Shown one piece after another: positions 7,095 to 19,723 of a stretch of 32,000 bases of DNA; position 1 is the stretch's first letter, and each line of letters opens with the position of its first letter. A model generated the notes under the pieces. The model worked only from the letters and a program-made list of their open reading frames with translations, was not told the origin of the DNA and searched no databases. The position numbers and the translations under genes are program-made. The DNA is taken from assembly GCA_031316235.1 (NCBI GenBank), contig JALDRA010000001.1, positions 1,620,001 through 1,652,000 on the forward strand, read 5' to 3'. This DNA comes from Candidatus Scalindua sp. Lineage in GTDB: Bacteria > Planctomycetota > Brocadiia > Brocadiales > Scalinduaceae.

Positions 7095-7253
7095 ACATTG
7101 GAATTGCAAATACTGCAAGGCAAAAGAAAACTTACCCTTTCACTATCTTTCACCAAATATTTCAATAGTTTTTTATGGATGCATTTTTCAGCGTGTAGCA
7201 GCGCAGCAATCTTAATTCGATTTAGGAGTTCCATTTTAATTAGTTTTTTTCTT

Positions 7254-7382
7254 AACGCAGAGGTCGCGGAGGACGCAGAGTAAAGATAGGTATTCCTATT
7301 TTGCCCGACCGACTCAGCCGTTCGGACGGGAACTCCAGCAACAAAATTTTGTTTTTCTCTGCGATCTCTGCGCCTCTGCGTT
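7254..7382. repeat. REP-like inverted pair (arms 7254-7280 and 7357-7382)
   Basis: AACGCAGAGGTCGCGGAGGACGCAGAG faces the reverse complement CTCTGCGATCTCTGCGCCTCTGCGTT. Same family as 5858-5935. Confidence 0.5.
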
Positions 7383-7536
7383 AAGGCATCTTAGTCTAAA
7401 ATTATCCGTTTAAGCACCATGAACACAGCTACTTATAAAACGACTGCAACATGTTAGTAACTTTGTCACTCTAAGCACCTATACTAAAACCGATCTGGTT
7501 TTCGGTTTTACCGGAAACCAGATCTTGGTGAAGGTA

Positions 7537-7614: not shown

Positions 7615-7860
7615 TTACTCATTATGAGCAGGAATCCATGTCTTCTCTTCGTATTCCTGCCAGTGACCAGAGGGTACAACTCTATTTTCATAATGTCCCT
7701 CGATCCTTCGGTCACCCTCATAACGTTCCGCAACCCACACCCTCTCTTTCTCTGAAGCATCAACCCACATTCTCTTCTTCACATACTCATAATGGCCTTC
7801 AACATAGTTTCCCCCCTGCCCAGATCTGGATTGTCTCTCCATCTGAAGCTGTCTGTCCAT
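7615..7860 (-). CDS. GHYE/W-rich small protein, or the frameshifted C-terminal part of the upstream glycine-zipper lipoprotein
   Basis: 81-aa ORF with repeated GHYE..VW motifs. It overlaps the 3' end of ORF 7799-8110 in another frame. Confidence 0.5.
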   Translation of the reverse strand: MDRQLQMERQSRSGQGGNYVEGHYEYVKKRMWVDASEKERVWVAERYEGDRRIEGHYENRVVPSGHWQEYEEKTWIPAHNE

Positions 7861-8110
7861 TTGTGCATATTCTCTCTTCCCTCTTTTTGTCTAAATGGTC
7901 TCCAACCAAAGCTCCACCGAGAGCCCCTGCTCCAGCACCAATTGCTGCGCCCATACCGGCATTACCCGTCAAGGCACCTATAATTGCACCGGTAGCCGCT
8001 CCCGCTCCGGTCCCAACTGCTGAGCTTTTTTGAGTTGTTGTTAAACAACCTGTAGTGAGAGTGCTTACTGTCACAACACATATTGTCATAATAATTATTT
8101 TTCTATTCAT
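7799..8110 (-). CDS. Glycine-zipper lipoprotein
   Basis: ATG at 8110 preceded by GGGAGAAAGC. Signal peptide with lipobox LTTGC. Gly/Ala zipper GTGAGAATGAIIGALTGNAGMGAAIGAGAGALGGALVG. Confidence 0.75.
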   Translation of the reverse strand: MNRKIIIMTICVVTVSTLTTGCLTTTQKSSAVGTGAGAATGAIIGALTGNAGMGAAIGAGAGALGGALVGDHLDKKREERICTNGQTASDGETIQIWAGGKLC

Positions 8111-8255
8111 GCTTTCTCCCACCTTAGACGATCTTCGTTCTGAGAAAGTTTCATAAAAAAAAATATTCAAGCAGATTACGTGTATCAACATGTTTCAGCC
8201 AGACTTTGTATAATACGAGCGTAAAGTTATTGTTTTGAGAACCCTAATGATCAAT

Positions 8256-8318
8256 CCGCTAACGTTTATGCTAAGTGGCGCGAGTTTACGAGCGTCCACT
8301 TGAGCTGCTTGTTAGGGC
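8256..8318 (-). other. attC-like recombination site D (63 bp), overlaps the 3' end of the TIR-SIR2 gene
   Basis: Minus strand: GCCCTAAC-aagca-GCTcAAGTGGaCGC-loop-GCGCCACTTAGC-ataaac-GTTAGCGG. Spacers are 5 and 6 nt, and there are two unpaired bases in the 5' arm. Confidence 0.75.
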
Positions 8319-9647
8319 TATTTTCTGCAAAATACCAGGTATTTCCCGATAGTCTTCAACCCATATCATGCTAAGCCCAAGTTCATTTGCATCTTGCTCT
8401 TCAAGGAGCAGTGCTAGCTGATCCATTGGGTCACGCGTTTTGGAATTGGATGGTACTTTCTTAATGAAATAGTGATTCAACGACTTGTCGGGATTTTTTC
8501 TATTGGCAACATCGAGCAAGCGCCTAAGATTCGGATCAGTTAAGCTCAGGCCAATAAACAGACATGTATTCTGACTCAACTTGTTTAACTGGATAAGGTT
8601 AGACCAGCTAAATGGCTCAATAAATTGGCTATGATAAGCATCTTCACTAAATACTACCTCCATATTTGGAGGGATTCGGCCTTTACGTGGAAGAAAACCG
8701 TGTACGTGATATACCGGTAATTCACTTGGTGAGTTACGCACCCCCTCACCATAAACCGCTTTATGGTTTATGTTTTGCTTCTCTAAATTTTCTTCTAACA
8801 AAGCATCAAAGTTAAAAGTAATTATTGAATCAAGTGGTTTACCATCTCTTTGAGGACGGGAAAGATCAACTATGGAATCTAAAATCTCGCAGGACTTTGG
8901 ATCGGATGCATATAGAGCGTCTCTGAGCTCTTTTAGGAAGTCCTTTCCAAGGTTGGTTTTTAGATACTTGCCCACCACAAGAGATGAAGGAGAATACCTT
9001 GAATGGAATTTATTGGCATCTAAATCCGCCATTGGTAAGGCGTGATCTGATGACATCCTCGACATCATTTCACTTAACAGCCTAAGTAATAAATCATTCC
9101 ACGATGGTACACCTGCACCCACGGACACACCTGCACCGCATACCAATGTCAAGCGGCCTCCATGTAGTGCCTTAGCGAGGTCTATTATCTTATTTTCTCT
9201 AACATCTTCCTTTTGTTCCTTTTGTATTTCCTCATCTGAGTGATCTGACTCCTCTCGACCCTCTTTTGTTATTGTGGCAACAAGGTTACGGATACCAAAT
9301 TCTATATCCGACGAAATATCAGCATAAACATAATTAGATAGATAACTTGGGATCGGTCCGTTATCTATTAAAACAGGGATTATTCTCGTTGTTTGCTTAG
9401 ATAGCTCATTAAATGCTATCGCAGAAAACTCATGCATCACCCATTTTGATTTTGATGAGTTTCGGCTAACTATCAGAATCACTATATCAGCTGACTTAAC
9501 GCCTTCTGATATTTTCTTTAGAAGGTTGTCACCAGCTTTTAAGCTCCACGAGTCATACCATACCTCATGGTTTGCTTCCTGTAGCTTATTTGCTAATAGC
9601 GAAGCGTATTTTTTATCTTGGCTGCTATAGCTGATGAATATCTTCAT
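8286..9647 (-). CDS. TIR-SIR2 fusion protein (putative NAD-consuming defence effector)
   Basis: The N-terminus MKIFISYSSQDKKYA...SKWVMHEF is TIR-like and has a conserved Glu. The C-terminal half is SIR2_2-like: LVCGAGVSVGAGVPSWNDLL, ITFNFDALLE, VYHVHGFL, LFIGLSLTDPNLRRLL. Confidence 0.8.
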   Translation of the reverse strand: MKIFISYSSQDKKYASLLANKLQEANHEVWYDSWSLKAGDNLLKKISEGVKSADIVILIVSRNSSKSKWVMHEFSAIAFNELSKQTTRIIPVLIDNGPIPSYLSNYVYADISSDIEFGIRNLVATITKEGREESDHSDEEIQKEQKEDVRENKIIDLAKALHGGRLTLVCGAGVSVGAGVPSWNDLLLRLLSEMMSRMSSDHALPMADLDANKFHSRYSPSSLVVGKYLKTNLGKDFLKELRDALYASDPKSCEILDSIVDLSRPQRDGKPLDSIITFNFDALLEENLEKQNINHKAVYGEGVRNSPSELPVYHVHGFLPRKGRIPPNMEVVFSEDAYHSQFIEPFSWSNLIQLNKLSQNTCLFIGLSLTDPNLRRLLDVANRKNPDKSLNHYFIKKVPSNSKTRDPMDQLALLLEEQDANELGLSMIWVEDYREIPGILQKIALTSSSSGRS

Positions 9648-9668
9648 TGTTTTTGATCCGTGTGTATT

Positions 9669-9742
9669 GCCCTAACGTTGCGCTCTGCGGAAATTTTGGA
9701 GCGCAGCGGAAAAATTGTCCGACAGCAGCGCCTTGTTATAAC
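9669..9742 (-). other. attC-like recombination site C (74 bp)
   Basis: Minus strand: GTTATAAC-aag-GCGCTgCTGtCGGA-loop-TCCGCAGAGCGC-aac-GTTAGGGC. It starts 3 nt after the upstream stop and has two unpaired bases (g, t) in the 5' arm. Confidence 0.75.
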
Positions 9743-9744
9743 TT

Positions 9745-10482
9745 TTAACCAACAATCTTCTTTTGCCTCTCGTACTCTGAATTTAGCTGTAAAAAAAGAG
9801 CATTAATATGATTGAATAAAATGCTATTTATTTCTCTGAACTCAGACTTCTTTTCAGATAAAACTTTTTTGAGACGCTCCGTTCGTATATGCTTGTATGC
9901 TTTCACTTGATCCTCGTCATCAATGTGCTCGAAATTATTAAGATAAAACAACTCAATTTTATTTAAGTCTTTATCAATTAACGAATGCCGATGAATAAGT
10001 GTATGTCTGATTTGCTCGTGCTCACTTAGATATTTGCTAATGGCTTTAACTGCCTTAAGAATTTCTGGGCGGTGTTGAACCTTATAGTTGCTGACTATTA
10101 CGCCATGATTTACATTTGCTTCATTAATGCACAGATGAAATACAGCATTTACCAACTGAAGAACTCGATCGTGTACAGATTTTATACGAATTAAGTAGTT
10201 TTCAATATTGTAAATTAGATGATCTGCCCGTGAAGCTTCTTTTTTTGAGTAATCAAAGTTCGATAGCAGCTCAATAGCTAAATCGAGTTGCCTACACCAA
10301 GAAATTGTATTAACTAGATAGAAACCTACTTTCTGGACGTAGTATTGATATTCAGATAATTCGATATCTTCAGGAAGCTCCGTAGCTAGTTTATCAACTT
10401 CGATGTCAGAAAATGCTACCTCTCCGTCTTTAAGAACAGATACCAAGAAAGAATTTTCATCTAATTCCGTAAATTTACTCAT
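9745..10482 (-). CDS. Hypothetical alpha-helical protein with a HEPN-like Rx4H motif
   Basis: ATG at 10482 preceded by AGGAG. EQIRHTLIHRHS gives R-x4-H at residues about 160-165. I tentatively recall similarity to the Cthe_2314-type HEPN family (YNIENYLIRIKSVHDRVLQLVN). Confidence 0.45.
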   Translation of the reverse strand: MSKFTELDENSFLVSVLKDGEVAFSDIEVDKLATELPEDIELSEYQYYVQKVGFYLVNTISWCRQLDLAIELLSNFDYSKKEASRADHLIYNIENYLIRIKSVHDRVLQLVNAVFHLCINEANVNHGVIVSNYKVQHRPEILKAVKAISKYLSEHEQIRHTLIHRHSLIDKDLNKIELFYLNNFEHIDDEDQVKAYKHIRTERLKKVLSEKKSEFREINSILFNHINALFLQLNSEYERQKKIVG

Positions 10483-10493
10483 CACACTCCTGA

Positions 10494-10619
10494 GTTATAA
10501 CGTTTTGCATAAGCAACCACCACCTGTGCGTATGCTTGCAAGAGAAACTTAAAGCGGTAGCCTTGATAAATATTAAACCGCATAGTTATTGGTGGTTGAC
10601 TTAATGTGATTGTTATGTG
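10494..10619 (-). other. attC-like recombination site B (126 bp)
   Basis: Minus strand: CACATAAC-aatca-CATtAAGtCAACCACCA-long loop-TGGTGGTTGCTTATG-caaaac-GTTATAAC. Spacers are 5 and 6 nt, and there are two unpaired T in the 5' arm. Confidence 0.7.
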
Positions 10620-11358
10620 ATTTTTAATATCCTTTAGAATATTATATAATATTTCTTGTTTCTCATATTGCATTCGAAAAAAAATAAATCATCCCCCAAG
10701 AAGAACATTGGCATATGTGGTAACGAAAAGACCGAGACAGAACCAACCGAGAAGCGACTGAATAGTAGCAAGCATCTGGGTAGCTGGACGGCAGGGATCA
10801 ATATCACCAAAGCCAAGCGTACTAAAAGTCGTTGCAGAAAAATAGATACATTGAAAAAGTGCGGAATCAAATGGTTTATCACATTCTTTTTTAATTGTAA
10901 TAATACATTTCTTAAGAAAGAGAAAAAACATTGGCACACTATAAATTTTATGTTTGTTTTGAACTTTAACTTCACAAGAGGAAAAAAATTTACTACTTAA
11001 CTTAAAAACGCTAATAATGAATTGGCTTGGATAAACTTCAACAAATTTTCTAGCAGGATCACGGAGCAACTGAAGGCCTGTGGGATTTAGAAGATAATAA
11101 AGCAGAGCAAAAACGATGATAATTACACCTCCCGTTGGAAATATTCGCAAAGGTCGAACACCAAATCCGCATATCAGCCAGTTTAGGTTGTTGAAAATCC
11201 ATATAAAGGGACTTACCGGTAGTTTCTCCCAAGCTGGATAGTTTTTTCTCTCCCAATTTTTATACTCGTAAAAAGCTTCTAAAGCAATATCGGGTCTACC
11301 AGCATTTTTGATACTATCCATTAGAGGATAGTAAGTTCTTTTTCGATCAATATCCCTA

Positions 11359-12579
11359 GTGTCACGTCAAGCTAGAATTGTCGTATATAATAGATTATAA
11401 TATCTTCATAATTAAATTTTTTTCGGGAGATTTAGATTATGAAGAAATACATAGTAACTCTTGATTGCGATGAACGTAACAGGCTTGTTGCTTTAACGTC
11501 TAAAGGGATGCATAGATCCCAAAAGATACTCAATGCATTACTATTATTAGCTTGCGACCAGGGTGAGTATCAGGGCAAACGTTCGACCAACGTTGAAATT
11601 GCCCGTGTTCTTAAAATAAGCATGAAGAAAATTGACCGGGTAAAGAAAAGATTTGTTGAAGAAGGTTTTGAAGTTGCGCTTAATGGACGCAAAGGCAATC
11701 GAGTATATGAAAAGAAGACAGATGGTGACTTTGAAGCCCACCTGGTAGCGTTAAGTTGTAGCGAGCCGCCAGAAGGTTTTGCAAGATGGTCTCTGCGATT
11801 ATTAGCAGACAAGGTAGTAGAACTTGAATATACTGACAAAATTTCCCACGAAACAATACGCCGTATATTAAAAAAAACGAAATTAAGCCCTGGCAACGAA
11901 AAGGTTGGGTAATACCGCCAAAAGAAAACGGCAGTTTTGTCGCTAACATGGAAATGGTGCTGGATGTATACAAACGTCCATATGACGCTAAGTATCCAGT
12001 AATATGTATGGACGAGTCACCAAAGCAACTTATATCAGAGACAAAGATGCCAATTTCTGCTTCACCAGGGCAACCGGCTAAGTATGACTATGAATATAAG
12101 CGTTGTGGAGTGTGTAATATTTTTCTGGCCTTTGAACCATTGGCCGGGAAACGTATAGTAAAAATAACAGAAAGAAGAACTAAACAAGATTGGTCCTATT
12201 TTCTGGAAGACGTTGTTAATACATATGGTCATGCGAACAAAATAACATTAGTAATGGACAACTTGAATACTCATGATGCTGGATCGTTGTATGAAACGTT
12301 TGTGCCGGATAAAGCAAAGGAAATTTTAGATAAATTTGAGTTTGTCTACACCCCAAAGCATGGTAGCTGGTTAAATATGGCAGAAATCGAGTTGAATGTA
12401 CTTGCTGGACAGTGTTTAAACAGGCGGATTGATAATATTACAAAGATAAAAAAAGAAGTACAGTCATGGCAGAAATTTAGAAACAATAAGAAATCAAAGG
12501 CTAACTGGCAGTTTACTACGATTGATGCCAGGATAAGATTATCTAAACTTTACCCGACACTTGATGATTGACGTGACAC
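11359..12579 (+). mobile_element. IS630-family insertion sequence (1221 bp)
   Basis: 12-bp perfect terminal inverted repeats: GTGTCACGTCAA at 11359-11370 and TTGACGTGACAC at 12568-12579. TA is duplicated at 11357-58 and 12580-81 within a CTAG target. Confidence 0.9.
11439..12571 (+). CDS. IS630-family DDE transposase, two frames joined by a -1 shift at an A8 run
   Basis: ORF1 is the HTH part and ORF2 the DDE part. Shifting -1 at 11870-11877 reads LKKNEIKPWQRKGWVIPPKENGSFVANMEMVLDVYKRPYD, which is the canonical IS630 junction. Confidence 0.85.
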
Positions 12580-13518
12580 TAGATAAAAAATTTACATTTT
12601 TTTTGTCATCGAAAGAAAGGAGACCTGCAAGTTGGGACCAATCAGTAAAAGAAAGTCTTGAGTGAGATGACCAACCTAGCTGAATTGTACCATTGAACTT
12701 AGTTTTATGAAAAGCCCCAAATTCTCTAAAACTTGAATTTGGGAAAAAAACAGAACCTTCAAATTCAGTAAAAGAAAAATATGTATCCCCACGAAATTTA
12801 GTTCCATCAAAAACTGCATCACTTTTAAACTTAGCTCTCATAAACTGAGCATCTTCATCAAAATGTGATTTAGTAAAGTCTACTTTCTGATAAAATTCTG
12901 TACTCCAGAAATCAGCCTGCTTACCAAACTTTACCGCAAAGAATTTTATAACTTTACTTTTTCCCTTGTTAGTATTAGCGAATTTAGCATTACTAAAGCC
13001 AGAGCCTTCTTTAAAATTTGCATAAGAGAAGTCAGTTTTTCCATAAAAAATTGATTTATGAAAATCAGCCATTTTTTCAAAGTTTGTTGCAAAGAAATTT
13101 GTTGAATTCTTGAAAATAGAATCGCGAAAAGATATTTCTTTTTTTATATGTAAACCATGAAAACCAACATCACTATCAAAAACGGATGAGACTATTGATA
13201 TTTCCCTTTTAATGTCAAATAATTCTCCTTCATTTCCTGGAATCGATAATTTTCCTATTACCCACAACTTTGACACTTTTAATGGTGTATTGGTATCTTT
13301 TATAATTTCTTTTCTAAGATTTTCTGCTGTTACCCAATAATATCCATCCTTTTTTAGTTCACCTGAAATGTAAATGTTGCAACCAGGGGAAGCGTCTTTG
13401 TATGCCATCACAGTTCCTGGCAATCCCACTATTAGGTGAATTATCAAGATACTAAGCCAAAATACTAATATCACAGAATGGTTGGTAAGATTAGTAATTA
13501 TTTTTTTCTTATAAGTTA

Positions 13519-13607
13519 ACATAACGCCTCGCATCACCGGGCGCAAAAAGCAGAGCGAGGAACGAGCGGCGCTTTTTGCGATCCGAGTGCATGCGATTGT
13601 TAGGGGC
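13519..13607 (-). other. attC-like recombination site A (89 bp)
   Basis: Minus strand: GCCCCTAAC-aat-CGCATgCACtCGGatCGCAAAAAGC-loop-GCTTTTTGCGcCCGGTGATGCG-aggc-GTTATGT. It starts 2 nt after the upstream stop. The ATG of the next cassette lies inside R'. Confidence 0.75.
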
Positions 13608-13608
13608 T

Positions 13609-14304
13609 TTAGCCTTGCTCACGCCCCGACCGTTCACGAAGTGTTTTTACTGCGTAGGCACCGCCAGCGAGAAACACCCCCGCGCCAGCTAAGATGCCGC
13701 CTATAATTTCACCTACGTTGAATTCAATATTTACGGTTGGCTTTTCCGCCCACCCAAGATAAACGATGTAACCAACTATCACGCTGATTAGCCCAAAGAT
13801 TGCAACGTAGAGCCAGTTAACAGCGGATTTCTTCTTGCCGGTGGTCGATTTTATTCTTCGCCTGACGCTAGACAACTTCTTGAGAAGTTGCCATTTTCTA
13901 GCCCAAGCTCGATTTTGCTTTTGAATGGATTTTGTTTCTGGATCAATAGATGAGGCAGTGAGCTCATCAATTGAAGATTTCAGCATTGGGTAGAGAACCG
14001 CATTCTTTTTAGAATTGAGATAGCCTCTCTCTTTATCAGTGACCTGAATAGGTCGAACAATACCATCTTTCGATGTCCGAAAAACAAGGTGCCTATGAAG
14101 CACCATGCGCGTGAGGCCAAAGCTGTCGTGCTCTTGATGTTTGAAATTAAAGTTATCAACGATTTCCTTCGCGTTGACGCCGTCATATTCTGAGGCTGCC
14201 ATTAGTTGGCAATACAATGAAATGCGCGCCTGAGGTGACAAAGCGGTCGCATAGGATGCGATCCACTTCCTATATTGTTCAAGTTTTTCTTCGTATTCAG
14301 GCAC
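13609..14304 (-). CDS. Hypothetical membrane-anchored protein (231 aa)
   Basis: GTG start with GAGGAACAGCA upstream. A soluble N-terminal domain of about 110 aa is possibly winged-helix-like. It is followed by a Lys/Arg-rich linker and two C-terminal hydrophobic helices (WLYVAIFGLISVIVGYIVYL, IIGGILAGAGVFLAGGAYAV). Confidence 0.6.
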   Translation of the reverse strand: MPEYEEKLEQYRKWIASYATALSPQARISLYCQLMAASEYDGVNAKEIVDNFNFKHQEHDSFGLTRMVLHRHLVFRTSKDGIVRPIQVTDKERGYLNSKKNAVLYPMLKSSIDELTASSIDPETKSIQKQNRAWARKWQLLKKLSSVRRRIKSTTGKKKSAVNWLYVAIFGLISVIVGYIVYLGWAEKPTVNIEFNVGEIIGGILAGAGVFLAGGAYAVKTLRERSGREQG

Positions 14305-14340
14305 TGCTGTTCCTCGCCCCTAACAGTTAAATATACAACT

Positions 14341-14389
14341 ACTATGATATCAGAAATATACGGCAGCCGTATATTTCTGATATCATAGT
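14341..14389. repeat. 49-bp perfect palindrome
   Basis: ACTATGATATCAGAAATATACGGC-A-GCCGTATATTTCTGATATCATAGT. The arms are 24 bp with no mismatch. Confidence 0.9.
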
Positions 14390-14689: not shown

Positions 14690-14818
14690 AGTGGTTGAAC
14701 GAAAACTACCCATCTACGGCGTTGCTGTAACAATTTCGTAATCCTCAAGTACAAATTGTACGTTCCGGTTACGAAATTGTTACGCGCCTTGTATCTGGGC
14801 AGTTTTCTTTCAACCACT
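14690..14818. repeat. 129-bp imperfect palindromic element
   Basis: The arms pair as GTGGTTGAA/GAAAACT/CCCA/GTAACAATTTCGTAA/GTACA blocks separated by internal loops. GTCTAAC (14682-14688) lies just outside the left arm. Confidence 0.8.
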
Positions 14819-14862
14819 GGGTTTCCGTTCAAGCACTAATTATGTGATAACTGCAAAGGATA

Positions 14863-15423
14863 ATGGATAACGTAACAGAAAAGACAATTACCATGGCGTC
14901 AGAAGGAGACATTGATTCATTTGAGACTATCTATAATGAGTATTCCGGCTTAGTCCATAATGTTGCATTTCGGATTGTTCGTAATAGTGATGAGGCACAA
15001 GAGGTTACTCAAGAGGTGTTTCTTGCCGTGTACCGCAAACTTAAGACTTTTAAGTTTCAATCCTCTTTTAAGACATGGATTTACCGGATAGCGGTTAATT
15101 TTGCCCTCAACTATGCAAAAAAAGAGTTGAGAAACCAAGGCAGTACGGTTGAATTTAATAATAATACGCCGCTCAATAAAGCCATCGATTCCATAGATGA
15201 AACTATCGAAAAAGAGCAGCATGAGAAAAAAATATCCACTTTACTGGAGGCTCTCAATCCGGACCAGAGAGCCTGTATCGTATTAAGGAGCCTGGAAGGT
15301 CTCAGTTATCAGGAAATAGCGGACTCATTAAACATTAATGTGAATACCGTACGTTCCAGGCTCAAGCGAGCCAGGGAAAAACTTGTCACTTTAAGAGAAG
15401 AGATGGTGAAAAATGAAATGTGA
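14863..15423 (+). CDS. ECF-type RNA polymerase sigma-70 family factor
   Basis: Region 2 (FETIYNEYSGLVHNVAFRIVRNSDEAQEVTQEVFL) and region 4 HTH (LSYQEIADSLNINVNTVRSRLKRAREKL). Confidence 0.85.
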   Translation: MDNVTEKTITMASEGDIDSFETIYNEYSGLVHNVAFRIVRNSDEAQEVTQEVFLAVYRKLKTFKFQSSFKTWIYRIAVNFALNYAKKELRNQGSTVEFNNNTPLNKAIDSIDETIEKEQHEKKISTLLEALNPDQRACIVLRSLEGLSYQEIADSLNINVNTVRSRLKRAREKLVTLREEMVKNEM

Positions 15424-15904
15424 AACGGTTAAAGAGCTAATCCTAACCGATTATGTCGATGAACAGCTGAGCGAAGAGAAAAAAAAGCTGGTTGAGCAAC
15501 ACTTAACAATGTGCGAGCATTGCCGAGAGTACGGACTTTTAACGAAAGAGTTCGTTATTGAACCATTCAATTACGCAGAACGTATTAATCCTCCTATGGC
15601 TGCATGGCATACGATTAAGGAACAGATTGAAGGAGAAGAGCGAGAAGGACCCTGTTCCGGTTTGATCTTTAAGATTAAGACCTTTCTGTTTATTCCAAAG
15701 CCAGCCTTGGCTGTTGCTTCGGTAGTAGTTGTATTACTTCTTATGCTTACTCTTATAAAGTCACCATCGAATAACCAGACTACGCTGAATGGAGACCCTG
15801 AGAATCAGGTTGAGTGCATAACTTATTTATTAAGCATTTTTGACCAGGATTCAGCAAACGAAAATGACGATCTCGGAACTTCCATAGAGGACTTTTTCTT
15901 ATAA
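15413..15904 (+). CDS. Anti-sigma factor (zf-HC2 type, single TM)
   Basis: Overlaps the sigma gene by 11 nt. H-x3-C-x2-C motif HLTMCEHCREY and a central TM helix LAVASVVVVLLLMLTLI. Confidence 0.75.
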   Translation: MKCETVKELILTDYVDEQLSEEKKKLVEQHLTMCEHCREYGLLTKEFVIEPFNYAERINPPMAAWHTIKEQIEGEEREGPCSGLIFKIKTFLFIPKPALAVASVVVVLLLMLTLIKSPSNNQTTLNGDPENQVECITYLLSIFDQDSANENDDLGTSIEDFFL

Positions 15905-16839: not shown

Positions 16840-17100
16840 CTACCAATAGTTGCGGGGTCCCCTGCCTGTGAGTTGCCGACTCCCGGCTTCAATCAGCGCC
16901 TGCGAGCTTTGACTGGAAAGAATTCTTTCGTAGTATTGCGACTGAATCTGACCTTCCAGATCCCGCTTGTCCCATCCGCATTCTGCGGCTTCATTTTCAT
17001 AGAATTCTCTGGCCTTCTTAACTTTAACCTGCATGAGCGCTGGGTAGACGACGTACTGGCCAGGAAAAATGGATTGGGGTTTTAGGCAAAATTTGATACA
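16840..17100 (-). pseudogene. Internal fragment of a DUF1016/YhcG-type (PDDEXK nuclease) gene
   Basis: AREFYENEAAECGWDKRDLEGQIQSQYYERILS resembles the E. coli YhcG segment RLWYAQQAIEHGWSRNVLVHQIESQLYQRQ. The N-terminus and the nuclease domain are missing. Confidence 0.45.
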
Positions 17101-17285
17101 ATTCAGTAATTCTTTCAGGGGGAAAAATGCCAAAACGTCCGGATAATAAGTCACCAATAAAAGTATTATATGTACTAACAAACGTAAAATAAGGGGCGAT
17201 TAGTACTGCTAATTCTTATTGGCTGTACTAATCATTAGACGACGGAAATTTGTGTAAAAAAAGAAAATGACAGAAGGGGTGAGTT

Positions 17286-17510
17286 ATGAAAAGATATAAA
17301 ATAATTGTAGAGAAACATCCTGATGGTTATGTAGCTTATCCCCTTGGTATAAAAGGTGTACTTGTAGGGCAAGGAGATAGCTATGAGGATGCCCTTACCG
17401 ATGTAAAATCAGCAATTAAATTTCATATTGAAACATTCGGTGAAGAGATTTTAGATATTGATCCTCCAATACTTGAGGCATTTGTTGCTGAAGCAGGAAT
17501 TGAGTCCTGA
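17286..17510 (+). CDS. hicB: HicB-family (UPF0150) antitoxin
   Basis: 74 aa: [46 protein letters not shown], typical of short HicB. Stop overlaps the hicA ATG (ATGA overlap). Confidence 0.8.
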
Positions 17511-17751
17511 TGTCAAAATTTCCAGTTGATGCTCCAAAACGAAGAGTTATTAAGGCTTTAGAGGTTCTTGGATTTCAAATTGTAAGAGAGAGAGAGAACA
17601 TATTTCTATGGTTCGAGAAAATCCTGATGGAACAATAACTCCTTTGACGATGCCTAATCATCCTAAAATAAAGGCTTCTACATTAAGAACAATATGTACA
17701 CAGGCAAGCATTACACGTGAGAAATTTTTAAATGTTTACAATACTACATAA
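17510..17751 (+). pseudogene. hicA: HicA-family toxin gene with a frameshift in an (AG)n tract
   Basis: The N-frame reads [29 protein letters not shown]. The C-frame reads [51 protein letters not shown]. The frames change inside AGAGAGAGAGAGA at 17585-17597. Total length is 242 nt, not a multiple of 3. Confidence 0.8.
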
Positions 17752-17997
17752 GTAGGAATGTTGGGCCAAACTTAATCTATTGACAAAAATGCAGTTTATT
17801 CTAACGGTCTCCATACAAAATCAATAAAACATTCAAGGAATAACCTCCTTGCAATAACCGCTTGACCTCATTGCTTGAAGAAACAAACGTATCATTTTTA
17901 TTGCAGTATTGAGGTTTTTTTGACAATGCTATGAGAGGAAGAAGGTTTATCCCTGATCATTGATTATAGATTTGATACAGATTATTTGAGGGGTATT

Positions 17998-18047
17998 TAT
18001 ACTCATACTGGATTTCGGATAAAATCCGAGATAAATTTGAGCGAGTA
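17998..18047 (+). repeat. About 50-nt structured repeat, copy B
   Basis: TATACTCAT..TTTCGGATAAAATCCGAGATAAATTTGAGCGAGTA. Its partner is at 7537-7591 in inverted orientation. Confidence 0.7.
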
Positions 18048-18200
18048 AAGCAATGCTTCAAGGGCCAGACCTTCATTTTTCAATTAACAACTTTTACATA
18101 ATACATACAAAGGACCACTATGGAGTGACCATTGCTGTTTGAATTTGATCCAAAGAGTCGCCTTTTAAGGTATTAAGATTGGTGTCAAGAGTCAGAATGC

Positions 18201-19067
18201 TTCATAGATTATCGTGATCAGGATGAAATTGAACACACCGTTGAAGAACTGATTTCTCAACGAGTATATGGGATAGCATTAGGATACGAAGATTTAAATG
18301 ATCATGACAGTTTGCGGGCTGATCGTTTGCGGGCAATATTATGTGGGAAGGAAGACCCAAGTGGCCAGGATCGACGCTGTGCAAGAGACAAGGGGAAAGC
18401 ATTAGCAGGTTAGAGTACTTTGAACAGACTGGAATTAACGCCTCCTGATGCTACGAGGAAAGACCGTTATAAAAAGATAGTGTATTGTAGAGAAAAGGTT
18501 GAAGAATATTTTGTAGACATTTTTTTGCGTTCCAGAGAAGAGATACCAGATCAAATAATACTGGACCTGGATGCGACAGACAATCCCCTTTATGGTAACC
18601 AGGAAAATCGTTTCTTTCATGGATATTATGACAGTTACTGTTATCTGCCCTTGTACATTTTTTGTGGAAGCCAGTTGCTGTGTGCAAAGCTGAGGCCTTC
18701 GGATATTGATTGTAGTGAAGGTTCTAAAGAAGAAGTAGAAAGAATTGTCAAACATATCCGTAAACAGTGGCCAGATGTGAGAATTATTCTACGGGGTGAT
18801 TCTGGCTTTGCGAGAGAAGAATTGATGAAGTGGTGTGAGGCGAACGGTGTTGACTATCTATTTGGTTTAGCAAAGAATTCGCGCCTCATAAAGATGATCG
18901 AAGGAGAACAGGAAGAAGCCCGGAAAGAATATGATCGGACAGAGCAGGCGTCTCGTGTGTATAAAGACTTTGTATACAGGACCCTGAAAAGTTGGTCAAG
19001 AGAAAGACGGGTTGTTGGCAAGGCAGAATATTTGAGGAGGGGTCCCAAAAAGTTTTCAGGATCTTAA
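18201..19067 (+). pseudogene. IS1380-family transposase pseudogene
   Basis: QRVYGIALGYEDLNDHDSLRAD, ILDLDATDNPLYGNQ and FFHGYYDSYCYLPLYIF match the IS1380 family as I recall it. An in-frame TAG sits where the family has AGKSTLNRLE. The N-terminus is degraded (stops upstream of 18201) and the C-terminal half is missing. Confidence 0.75.
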
Positions 19068-19151
19068 CCCGCAATTTATGAAAGTAATTGGAGGTTGGAA
19101 TAAATATGTGGTATGAACTGGCGGATACTAGATCAGGGAGAGGAACCACAG

Positions 19152-19517
19152 ATGGGCACAGATAAGCACAGATAAGCACAGATTATTGGATGTGTATTTG
19201 AAGTTTTGAACACACTTGGTCATGGTCTTCTTGAAAAACTCTATGAAAATGCACTTGTTGTTGAATTTGGTATAAAACAAATACCGTTTCAGCAACAGGT
19301 ACGGTTACCGGTAATTTATAAATCTGTACAAGTTAGTGAATATATCCCCGATCTGATTGCTTTTGATAAAATTATTGTTGATATCAAAGTCATTGAGAAG
19401 ATTGGCAATAACGAAATAGCTCAAATCATCAATTATCTAAAGATTATCGGGTTGAGAGTAGGGCTGGTATTAAACTTTAAACATGCCAAACTTGAAGGGG
19501 AGAGAATTATCTTATGA
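19152..19517 (+). pseudogene. GxxExxY-family (PD-(D/E)XK-like) protein gene with an in-frame TAA at codon 8
   Basis: MGTDKHR*AQIIGCVFEVLNTLGHGLLEKLYENALVVEF... has the hallmark GxxExxY motif. The stop at 19173-19175 lies inside a 10-bp tandem repeat. It may still be expressed from the downstream TTG at 19206. Confidence 0.6.
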
Positions 19518-19723
19518 AGAAAAGGACACAGTTAGACACGGATTTTGTATTATCGAAAAACAGAATTATTAAAAATATTATCTGTGTGAACCAGTGTTCA
19601 TCTGTGATCAAAGAAAAAGTTGTTCCATGAGTATGAATGAAAAGGAACTCTTAAAACTGCCGAGAGGGTTGAGGGTCAAATCTTTCAAATTGACAAACGT
19701 TTTGTTTGAGATATTCTTTTGTA

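Follow-up and report, generated by a model that had tools for sequence, protein, structure and literature searches.

The window considered here is a stretch of 32,000 nucleotides from the chromosome of Candidatus Scalindua (positions 1,620,001-1,652,000 of contig JALDRA010000001.1, assembly GCA_031316235.1), numbered below from its first letter. Between a glycine-zipper lipoprotein gene and an extracytoplasmic function (ECF) sigma factor gene it carries a run of four minus-strand open reading frames (ORFs), called at 13609-14304, 12539-13546 plus 10689-11321, 9745-10485 and 8286-9647. They belong to four integron gene cassettes that fill positions 8257-14324 of the minus strand, all co-oriented and every one closed by its own attC site (Table 1). 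Each keeps to the format of a cassette, with one compact ORF whose start codon lies 8-30 nt from the crossover point and an attC site at the 3' end, and the crossover G bases fall at 14324, 13525, 10501, 9676 and 8263. The DNA upstream of 14324 is not an attC site, there being no match to attC models at that place.

None of the ORFs in the window encodes a tyrosine recombinase (Pfam; no PF00589-type match), and a tblastn search with IntI1 gave a best match of E=2.7, on the wrong strand, with no intI remnant in the 539-bp spacer upstream of the array. These searches extended 8.2 kb to one side of the array and 17.7 kb to the other. What stands at the usual place of an integron integrase is the ECF sigma gene together with 539 bp of non-coding DNA, and the intI gene with adjacent attI and a Pc promoter upstream of the first cassette, which together make a complete integron, were not found in the window. 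Clusters of attC sites lacking an integron-integrase (CALINs) are by definition made up of two or more attC sites that share a strand, lie under 4 kb apart and have no intI in the vicinity (PMC4889954). Here all four sites share one strand, the largest gap is ~2.9 kb (A to B), and the window holds no intI within 4 kb of the array, or within 10 kb when pseudogenes are included. As read from its sequence, the region is very probably an array of this kind, comprising four integron cassettes without a nearby integrase in the Candidatus Scalindua chromosome.

Table 1. Features of the cassette array and its borders (window positions; nt, nucleotides; aa, amino acids; IS, insertion sequence)
Feature	Position	Strand	Description
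Flanking core gene, glycine-zipper lipoprotein	7615..8118	-	not a cassette; syntenic with the ECF sigma gene in L004 and L005; no attC after it
attC site D	8257..8317	-	61 nt; R'' CCCTAAC, R' GTTAGCG; last crossover G at 8263
Cassette 4	8263..9675	-	1413 bp, 40.5% GC
Cassette 4 ORF	8286-9647	-	453-aa TIR_2 + SIR2_2 fusion
attC site C	9670..9741	-	72 nt; R'' TTATAAC, R' GTTAGGG; 5-nt spacer on each side
Cassette 3	9676..10500	-	825 bp, 35.3% GC
Cassette 3 ORF	9745-10482	-	245-aa Cthe_2314-type HEPN protein (HEPN_Cthe2314), RHTLIH (RX4H) motif
attC site B	10495..10618	-	124 nt, long variable loop; R'' ACATAAC, R' GTTATAA; 5/6-nt spacers
Cassette 2	10501..13524	-	3024 bp including the IS; 1801 bp, 33% GC without it
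IS630-family insertion sequence	11359..12579	+	1221 bp; NCBIfam transpos_IS630, 152.7 bits
attC site A	13519..13605	-	87 nt; R'' CCCTAAC, R' GTTATGT; 5/6-nt spacers
Cassette 1	13525..14323	-	799 bp, 47.4% GC
Cassette 1 ORF	13609-14304	-	231-aa protein, function unassigned
Array upstream boundary	14316..14324	-	G|TTAGGGGC; crossover base G at 14324, cassette 1 begins with TT at 14323
Perfect 23-bp stem, 3-nt loop	14340..14386	.	z = -9.4 to -9.6; 15 nt upstream of the first crossover point
Flanking core gene, ECF sigma factor	14863..15423	+	Pfam; anti-sigma factor next at 15413-15904

attC sites and crossover points

The bottom strand of an attC site (here the plus strand of the window) folds into a hairpin in which the R' box, of the form GTTRRRY, and the R'' box, of the form RYYYAAC, are paired, the central spacer is unpaired and a few extra bases protrude; in known sites the asymmetry of these extra bases, on the R''/L'' arm, marks the recombinogenic bottom strand. 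The integron integrase (IntI) binds the folded strand, cuts between the A and C of AAC, equivalent to G|TT on the top strand, and swaps that strand with a partner site, the product being resolved by replication. At all four sites of the window the 5' arm, read on the minus strand, opens with a 7-nt box that has TAAC at its end; a 5-nt spacer and 3 bp lead from it to one bulged base, at position 16, and a second bulged base comes 3 bp (A, B, C) or 6 bp (D) further on. Beyond the stem and variable loop, the 3' side has 3 bp and a spacer of 6 nt (5 nt in C) before GTTR. The extra bases are confined in every case to the R''/L'' arm, which lies 5' on the minus strand and 3' on the bottom strand; site B carries two single bulges on this arm, and the bulged C and A of site D correspond to an extrahelical G and T on the bottom strand. 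Owing to their gapped arms, such palindromes are not recovered by a general repeat search.

Two covariance models were applied to the window. The first, R1, was built on 14 outer base pairs from 18 attC sites of eight class 1 integrons (enterobacterial and Pseudomonas plasmids), fetched via the IntI1 gene, with nothing from the window or its relatives in the training set. The broader R2 was trained on 42 matches from class 1 integrons and environmental contigs, none from the window, two of the 42 being wrong-strand matches to palindromic attC sites. With filters off, R1 gave full-length, minus-strand matches to D (36.4 bits, E=4e-7), A (20.6, E=0.0046), C (16.9, E=0.041) and, at rank five, B (10.9, E=1.4). 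Scores under R2 were 50.9 bits for D (E=5e-10), 37.0 for A (1e-6), 33.2 for C (8.5e-6) and 23.6 for B (0.0017), the next best match, at 11.7 bits, being the reverse strand of D. Neither model located further attC sites elsewhere in the window on either strand, and an Rfam scan of the whole window at the gathering threshold returned nothing, with no attC-like match.

In a background of 1.24 Mb of unrelated loci, the only R1 matches were five clustered attC-like ones on a single Omnitrophota contig, joined by a sixth there with filters off; that these formed one clustered array implies a very low empirical false-positive rate. A strict hand-written structural descriptor matched B, C and D, at a rate of 0.045 matches per shuffled window, and gave one match in 1.24 Mb, inside the same Omnitrophota array. 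It missed A because a greedy G-T wobble step mis-registered the stem, whereas the covariance models do recover this site. The Omnitrophota array itself (L011:17541-20150, metagenome-assembled genome (MAG) contig JBDRPX010000037.1) comprises six attC sites, with no integrase seen in the stretch examined.

Since IntI crosses over at G|TT, the first bases of a linear cassette, TTxxxx, are those formerly paired with the R'' box of that same cassette, and it is this chimeric pattern that the array displays. Cassettes 1-4 begin with GTTAGGGGC, GTTATGTTA, GTTATAACT and GTTAGGGCA, and their own inverse cores, reverse-complemented, read GTTAGGGGC, GTTATGTGA, GTTATAACT and GTTAGGGCT. Complementarity to the own cassette holds at 15/16 of the bases compared over the four informative positions after GTTR (binomial P ~1e-8), against 5/16, the chance level, for the physically attached core; the start of cassette 1 complements the inverse core at 13599-13607 at nine of nine positions. 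Real class 1 arrays obey the same rule, as in the arr-3 cassette, which starts with G|TTATGCA and has TGCATAAC as its R''. Homology to cassette-bearing loci elsewhere (L114, L108 and L093) begins and ends at the five predicted G|TT points. By comparison with these loci all five crossover points are verified, the boundaries of cassette 2 being fixed by its neighbours.

A first-pass annotation, made from the letters of the window alone, had proposed a CALIN-like array on the strength of four imperfect palindromes. The model matches fall at the same four places, one base inside the limits it gave, and the proposal is upheld both by these matches and by the G|TT-bounded recurrence of cassettes 1, 3 and 4 elsewhere. 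It had looked to an attC covariance model for confirmation, and the independently trained models match exactly these four sites in the window. The chimeric core pattern it described is that counted above, and the folds agree with its placing of the extra bases in the minus-strand 5' arm of all four sites. Its statement that B and D have the classical 5- and 6-nt spacers is correct for both, but the implication that only these two do is not, since A has 5/6-nt spacers as well.

The cassettes and their relatives elsewhere

Cassette 1 is nearly an orphan. At E<1e-3 its protein has only 117 matching representatives; leaving aside a near-identical 231-aa protein (95%), nearly all of them align just to the C-terminal part (about 140-225), a glycine-rich stretch common to many short proteins. 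The cassette DNA is 97.1% identical over 805 bp (window 14324-13520, from the first crossover G to R' of site A) to a marine metagenome contig (L114; ENA ERZ23486241 scaffold_10075), in which the flanks of the cassette are unrelated to those in the window on both sides. The homologue is there the first sequenced cassette of a contig with five attC matches. The six genes of this contig (L114:1-5627) encode the cassette-1 homologue, a 204-aa protein, DUF4917, a CAP12/Pycsar-type TIR protein, Mrr_cat and one more ORF, and it looks like a defence-rich integron array.

Cassette 2, once its insertion sequence (IS) is removed, consists of a single 536-aa gene in which pentapeptide repeats are fused to a two-pore-type K+ channel (Ion_trans_2); its ATG start codon (13520-13522) falls within the core site. 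Today the gene is in two pieces, 12582-13522 and 10689-11356, split by an IS630-family element that is bounded by 12-bp terminal inverted repeats (GTGTCACGTCAA), carries transposase ORFs at 11439-11912 and 11948-12571 and is flanked by a duplication of its TA target (11357-11358 and 12580-12581); deleting the IS and one TA restores the 536-aa frame. From the insertion it follows that selection no longer acts on cassette 2 at least, and that decay has begun. The channel fusion named in the first-pass annotation therefore exists once the IS is removed, but not as an intact gene, and the IS630 split went unmentioned there. The element is probably multicopy in the genome, since independent Logan assemblies, made from short reads, break at it. 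No close homologue of the cassette 2 protein was found (best 27% identity), one match sharing the Pentapeptide_3 plus Ion_trans_2 architecture, and there is consequently no independent context for site B; its R' crossover is confirmed by the Shewanella homology that starts at 10501.

This homology belongs to cassette 3, whose ORF is preceded at 5-6 nt by an AGGAG ribosome-binding site and whose protein is 95% identical to one from Shewanella marisflavi. At the DNA level the cassette is 92.5% identical over 830 bp to S. marisflavi CP022272.1 (window 10501-9672, crossover to crossover), with unrelated DNA upstream of it in the two genomes. Site C and its Shewanella copy differ at 16 of 72 bases, eight of which make up four compensatory base-pair changes; among 24 pairs there are besides one wobble and one broken pair. 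The compensatory changes indicate that the structure of the hairpin, rather than its sequence, has been conserved. In Shewanella frigidimarina (L110/L111), homology to cassette 3 breaks off within the R'' box (GTTATAAC|A) rather than at R' and is followed by different sequence, which may reflect an alternative attC or a rearrangement at R''. The HEPN protein matches no PADLOC defence model; it is probably an RNase toxin or abortive-infection effector.

Cassette 4 encodes the TIR-SIR2 fusion, the last 11 codons of which are supplied by attC site D. In PADLOC the protein matches the ThsA SIR2 model (E=5e-24, residues 271-444) and several TIR families, at domain level only, and Pfam adds a ThsB_TIR match; all of the defence matches are partial and far below NCBIfam cut-offs. 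The SIR2 part carries GAGVS, TFNFD and HVHG, presumably the NAD-binding and catalytic motifs, and the TIR part WVMHE, which we take to be the WxxxE motif. The predicted product is probably an NAD+-consuming anti-phage effector.

The TIR-SIR2 family is widespread: of the candidates scored, 1812 are homologues at E<=1e-10, and the best 120 are 55-79% identical and come from Proteobacteria, Bacteroidota, Chloroflexota, Ignavibacteriota and Planctomycetota. One homologue (L093; 77% protein identity) is attC-flanked in another array, with homology to the window beginning at G|TTAGGGC and a 3' attC homologous to site D that shows one compensatory T-A to C-G change. A second (L095/L096; 68% protein identity) has attC sites on both sides and a different neighbour, thereby providing a third context, and a DNA pattern search found the attC type of site D joined to other cargo in six further metagenome contigs. 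In Vibrio sp. (L091/L092) and Desulfosediminicola (L094/L098), TIR-SIR2 homologues 69-73% identical, with the gene at 10001-11362 of these loci, stand alone between housekeeping genes, with only a decayed attC trace at the 3' end; these copies look like old single-cassette insertions that have been domesticated. A plasmid collection contained no homologue of cassettes 1 or 3, and for cassette 4 only distant SIR2 matches.

The cassettes differ in composition from one another and from the flanking DNA, at 47.4, 33 (without the IS), 35.3 and 40.5% GC against 41-43%. The contrast between a GC-richer cassette 1 and AT-rich cassettes 2 and 3, pointed out in the first-pass annotation, is thus real. 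Since their GC contents differ and their attC types are unrelated, the cassettes appear to be of different origins, and the near-identity of cassettes 1 and 3 to marine sequences points to recent acquisition.

Chromosomal setting and origin of the array

The genes on either side of the array are core genes of Scalindua. The ECF sigma protein is 66-71% identical to its counterpart in Candidatus Scalindua/Scalinduaceae MAGs, and in one related Scalindua MAG (L004) the glycine-zipper and ECF sigma genes lie ~650 bp apart with no array between them, compared with 6.7 kb, including the array, in the window. A second (L005) has the same adjacency, with an odd junction that could be an assembly problem or a deletion. 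Because the flanking genes are neighbours in these relatives, the array represents an insertion between syntenic core genes and not a conserved locus, and the suggestion that the four genes might be such a core locus, which the first-pass annotation had held out as fatal to its reading, fails at the empty site of L004.

A number of other features surround the array. The glycine-zipper gene is frameshifted in the window (ORFs 7799-8191 and 7615-7860), with the same frameshift in an independent Logan assembly, and forms one intact 170-aa ORF (8836-9348) in L004; as a candidate fifth cassette it was discarded, given its synteny with the ECF sigma gene in relatives and the lack of an attC site after it. 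The perfect hairpin at 14340-14386 is bulge-free, single copy and without a match to the attC models. It may be a terminator or insulator, or a piece of the original target site; its perfect stem, with no spacers or bulges and no model match, rules it out as the attC of a lost upstream cassette.

An imperfect palindrome of ~130 nt at 14692-14822, whose inner 15-nt arms (GTAACAATTTCGTAA) pair perfectly, is separated by ~40 nt from the ECF sigma gene, upstream of which it lies. Another Scalinduaceae MAG has a non-syntenic copy of it (L003:14961-15104), 75% identical and with two compensatory pairs, Rfam has nothing for it at gathering thresholds, and it looks like a repeat resembling repetitive extragenic palindromic (REP) or miniature inverted-repeat transposable elements, or a family of structured RNAs in Scalinduaceae. 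The stretch 14725-14785 within it was considered as a degenerate attC or attI and rejected, with scores of ~9-11 bits on both strands, no bulges and a place inside the 130-nt repeat copied in L003. The second palindromic repeat, at 7250-7435 (CTTAACGCAGAGGCGCAGAG ... CTCTGCGTCCTCCGCGACCTCTGCGTTAAG), has a 77% identical copy at L003:16515-16698; its TTAAC...GTTAAG palindrome (7250-7390) was considered as a fifth attC site and likewise dismissed, as it has no model match and belongs with this copy to a repeat family. Downstream of the sigma/anti-sigma/LTXXQ operon, positions 16840-19520 hold mobile-DNA debris, made up of a DUF1016 N-terminal fragment (16840-17181), a truncated DDE_Tnp_1_4 transposase (18420-19067) and a PDDEXK_3 nuclease gene (19206-19517).

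These repeat families bear on the possibility that the four palindromes of the array are ordinary hairpins, REP repeats or terminators, whose TAAC and GTT ends are coincidental. Unrelated palindromic families do occur in the same window (14692-14822 and 7250-7390) and are copied in another Scalinduaceae genome, which would accommodate it, as would the weak fold z-scores of the four sites against shuffles (-1.5 to -3.8). The probability of this reading is nonetheless negligible: the four sites match models of bona fide attCs, which the true repeat families do not, they show own-cassette complementarity at P ~1e-8, they delimit units that recur in other phyla, and none of them has a T-tail. They are also single-copy, with no copies elsewhere in the window nor in 80 related loci (1.24 Mb), unlike REP elements or bacterial interspersed mosaic elements, and the scattering of REP copies that the first-pass annotation had named as a refutation did not materialise in the window or these loci. 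An assembly or binning artefact, in which foreign cassette DNA, for example Shewanella-like, was misjoined to a Scalindua contig, would explain both the 92.5% identity of cassette 3 to Shewanella DNA and the deviating GC of the cassettes. It is very improbable, as the Shewanella homology stops exactly at the cassette boundaries and Logan assemblies from two samples reproduce the array junctions, breaking only at the IS and a palindromic repeat. One of these (L001) runs from the glycine-zipper gene through cassettes 4 and 3 into part of cassette 2, another (L112) from the upstream spacer through cassette 1 into part of cassette 2, and the cassette-1 junction is found in the second sample too; chimeric assembly is disfavoured by this independent agreement. 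It is improbable, if less so, that the array belongs to a larger integron whose integrase lies outside the window, either because the platform was split by an IS or inversion or because the array extends further. Half of CALINs sit in genomes that encode IntI elsewhere (PMC4889954), and IS elements occur in and near the array, but both of its ends abut core genes syntenic in relatives and no other attC is present in the window, which indicates a closed four-cassette insertion.

Several observations weigh against an attC array inserted at this place. The canonical bulge bases, G and T on the bottom strand, are present only in D, with C/A, A/A and C/A/G in A, B and C, respectively, and site B is significant only under the broader model R2. 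Both models are stand-ins for the attC model of IntegronFinder, and their E-values are roughly calibrated. The relatives behind the empty-site comparison are only ~70% identical to the window in DNA, and the 539 bp upstream of the array have no similarity to the intergenic DNA of these relatives, so that the ancestral target is not reconstructible.

How the cassettes reached this position is a less certain matter. IntI can recombine an attC site with attI, with another attC or with a secondary genomic 5'-GWT-3' site, termed attG (bioRxiv 10.1101/2022.09.11.507474). Insertion at a secondary genomic G|TT between the glycine-zipper and ECF sigma genes, with the integrase supplied in trans, is the favoured route and on balance a probable one, because both ends of the array read G|TT, its partner on the upstream side is no attC site, the 539 bp contain no integrase remnant and the flanks are syntenic. 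The array could instead be the remnant of a complete integron, its cassettes captured in situ at attI before an upstream intI was deleted or displaced. Integrase loss is a classical route to CALINs (PMC4889954), the upstream junction (TTTAACTG|TTAGG) presents G|TT after non-attC DNA just as at attI, stepwise capture agrees with the wide differences in GC and attC type among the four cassettes, and mobile-DNA debris is at hand in the IS630 element of the array and the transposase fragment at 18420-19067. A remnant of this kind is nevertheless rather unlikely. Neither tblastn nor Pfam detected an intI remnant in the 539-bp spacer that separates the array from the ECF sigma gene; the adjacency of the flanking genes in relatives would require that a whole integron inserted and then lost exactly its integrase module; and 95% of CALINs have no nearby intI pseudogene in published surveys (PMC4889954).

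Under insertion at a secondary site, an IntI acting in trans, encoded elsewhere in the genome or on a transient mobile element, would have placed the cassettes here, which may have entered singly or as a multi-cassette circle. Transcription reading in from upstream, or internal promoters, would be needed for their expression; matches resembling consensus promoters are no commoner in the array than in shuffles, a result that does not establish that it is promoterless. Without IntI in trans, the array would be static.

A broader and tentative reading, possible though somewhat doubtful as a whole, combines this route with the cargo. IntI would have built the array at a non-integron G|TT from cassettes drawn very recently from a marine pool shared with Gammaproteobacteria, and TIR-SIR2 would be an anti-phage system complete in one protein, which depletes NAD+, is related to Thoeris but fused and without a sensor, spreads as a cassette and is occasionally domesticated after decay of its attC. 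If true, the locus would be a case from nature in which the attG route works across phyla.

Cargo, significance and comparison with known systems

As the element type is well described and standard software run on the public MAG should report the array, the result is mainly confirmatory. A literature search on Planctomycetes turned up no more than a passing mention of integrons, and no search was aimed at Scalindua. The array does offer a clean natural example in which the five crossovers of a four-cassette array can be checked from sequence, since three of the cassettes recur with ends at G|TT. It also shows that anammox bacteria, which are slow-growing and without pure culture, take part in a marine cassette pool shared with Shewanella-type Gammaproteobacteria, and it singles out the TIR-SIR2 and Cthe_2314-type HEPN cassettes as compact, single-gene candidates for phage defence.

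Defence genes on integron cassettes, CALINs included, have already been published (bioRxiv 10.1101/2024.07.02.601719; bioRxiv 10.1101/2024.07.02.601686), and among them a HEPN-only cassette, 'Esos', was reported to be protective (bioRxiv 10.1101/2024.07.02.601719 / 10.1101/2024.07.02.601686); the main text of neither paper mentions TIR or SIR2. Like the cassettes of mobile integrons that confer resistance to bacteriophage (BRiCs; bioRxiv 10.1101/2024.07.02.601719) and the defence cassettes of Vibrio chromosomal integrons (bioRxiv 10.1101/2024.07.02.601686), those of the window are compact and single-gene, with TIR, SIR2 and HEPN domains. They differ in that only one of the four proteins matches PADLOC models, and the defence role here is predicted. 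The first-pass annotation had described the cargo as defence-oriented, a description that holds for TIR-SIR2 through its domain-level PADLOC matches, extends to the HEPN protein only as far as its RX4H motif, with no defence model, and does not hold for cassettes 1 and 2, both near-orphans. A defence reading is thus plausible for two of the four predicted products.

The closest defence counterpart of cassette 4 is Thoeris, which consists of ThsA (SIR2-SLOG) and ThsB (TIR). The cassette 4 protein has both a ThsB-like TIR and a ThsA-like SIR2 domain. Thoeris comprises two genes, whereas cassette 4 encodes one fused polypeptide, with no SLOG/STALD sensor domain detected and no second gene, and it is not a Thoeris system as defined.

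Among the attC sites of class 1 integrons, attC-aadA1, taken from real class 1 integrons (GTCTAAC-AATTC-GTT-C-AAGCCG-A-...), has the same layout as site D: R'' xxxTAAC, a 5-nt spacer, 3 bp, a bulged C, 6 bp, a bulged A, a 6-nt spacer and GTTRRRY. Class 1 sites differ from A-C in that their second bulge lies 6 bp after the first, compared with 3 bp in A-C, and in the identity of the bulged bases; beyond the boxes they have no sequence identity to the sites of the window. The array also lacks the intI1, attI1, Pc and 3' conserved segment of class 1 mobile integrons.

Insertions at attG and single attC sites lacking an integron-integrase (SALINs) (Loot et al., bioRxiv 10.1101/2022.09.11.507474) are similar in lying outside an integron platform, between housekeeping genes, and the outer G|TT junctions of the array fit 5'-GWT-3'; one cassette is present there and four here, for which the attG route is inferred. 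The lone TIR-SIR2 copies with decayed attC sites in Vibrio and Desulfosediminicola resemble old single insertions of this sort. The best overall match is with the CALINs of published surveys (PMC4889954), to which the array is alike in being small, in having no intI or intI pseudogene nearby and in carrying cassettes mostly of unassigned function. Nothing essential sets it apart from these; its particulars are the host, an anammox planctomycete, and the disruption of one cassette by an IS630 element.

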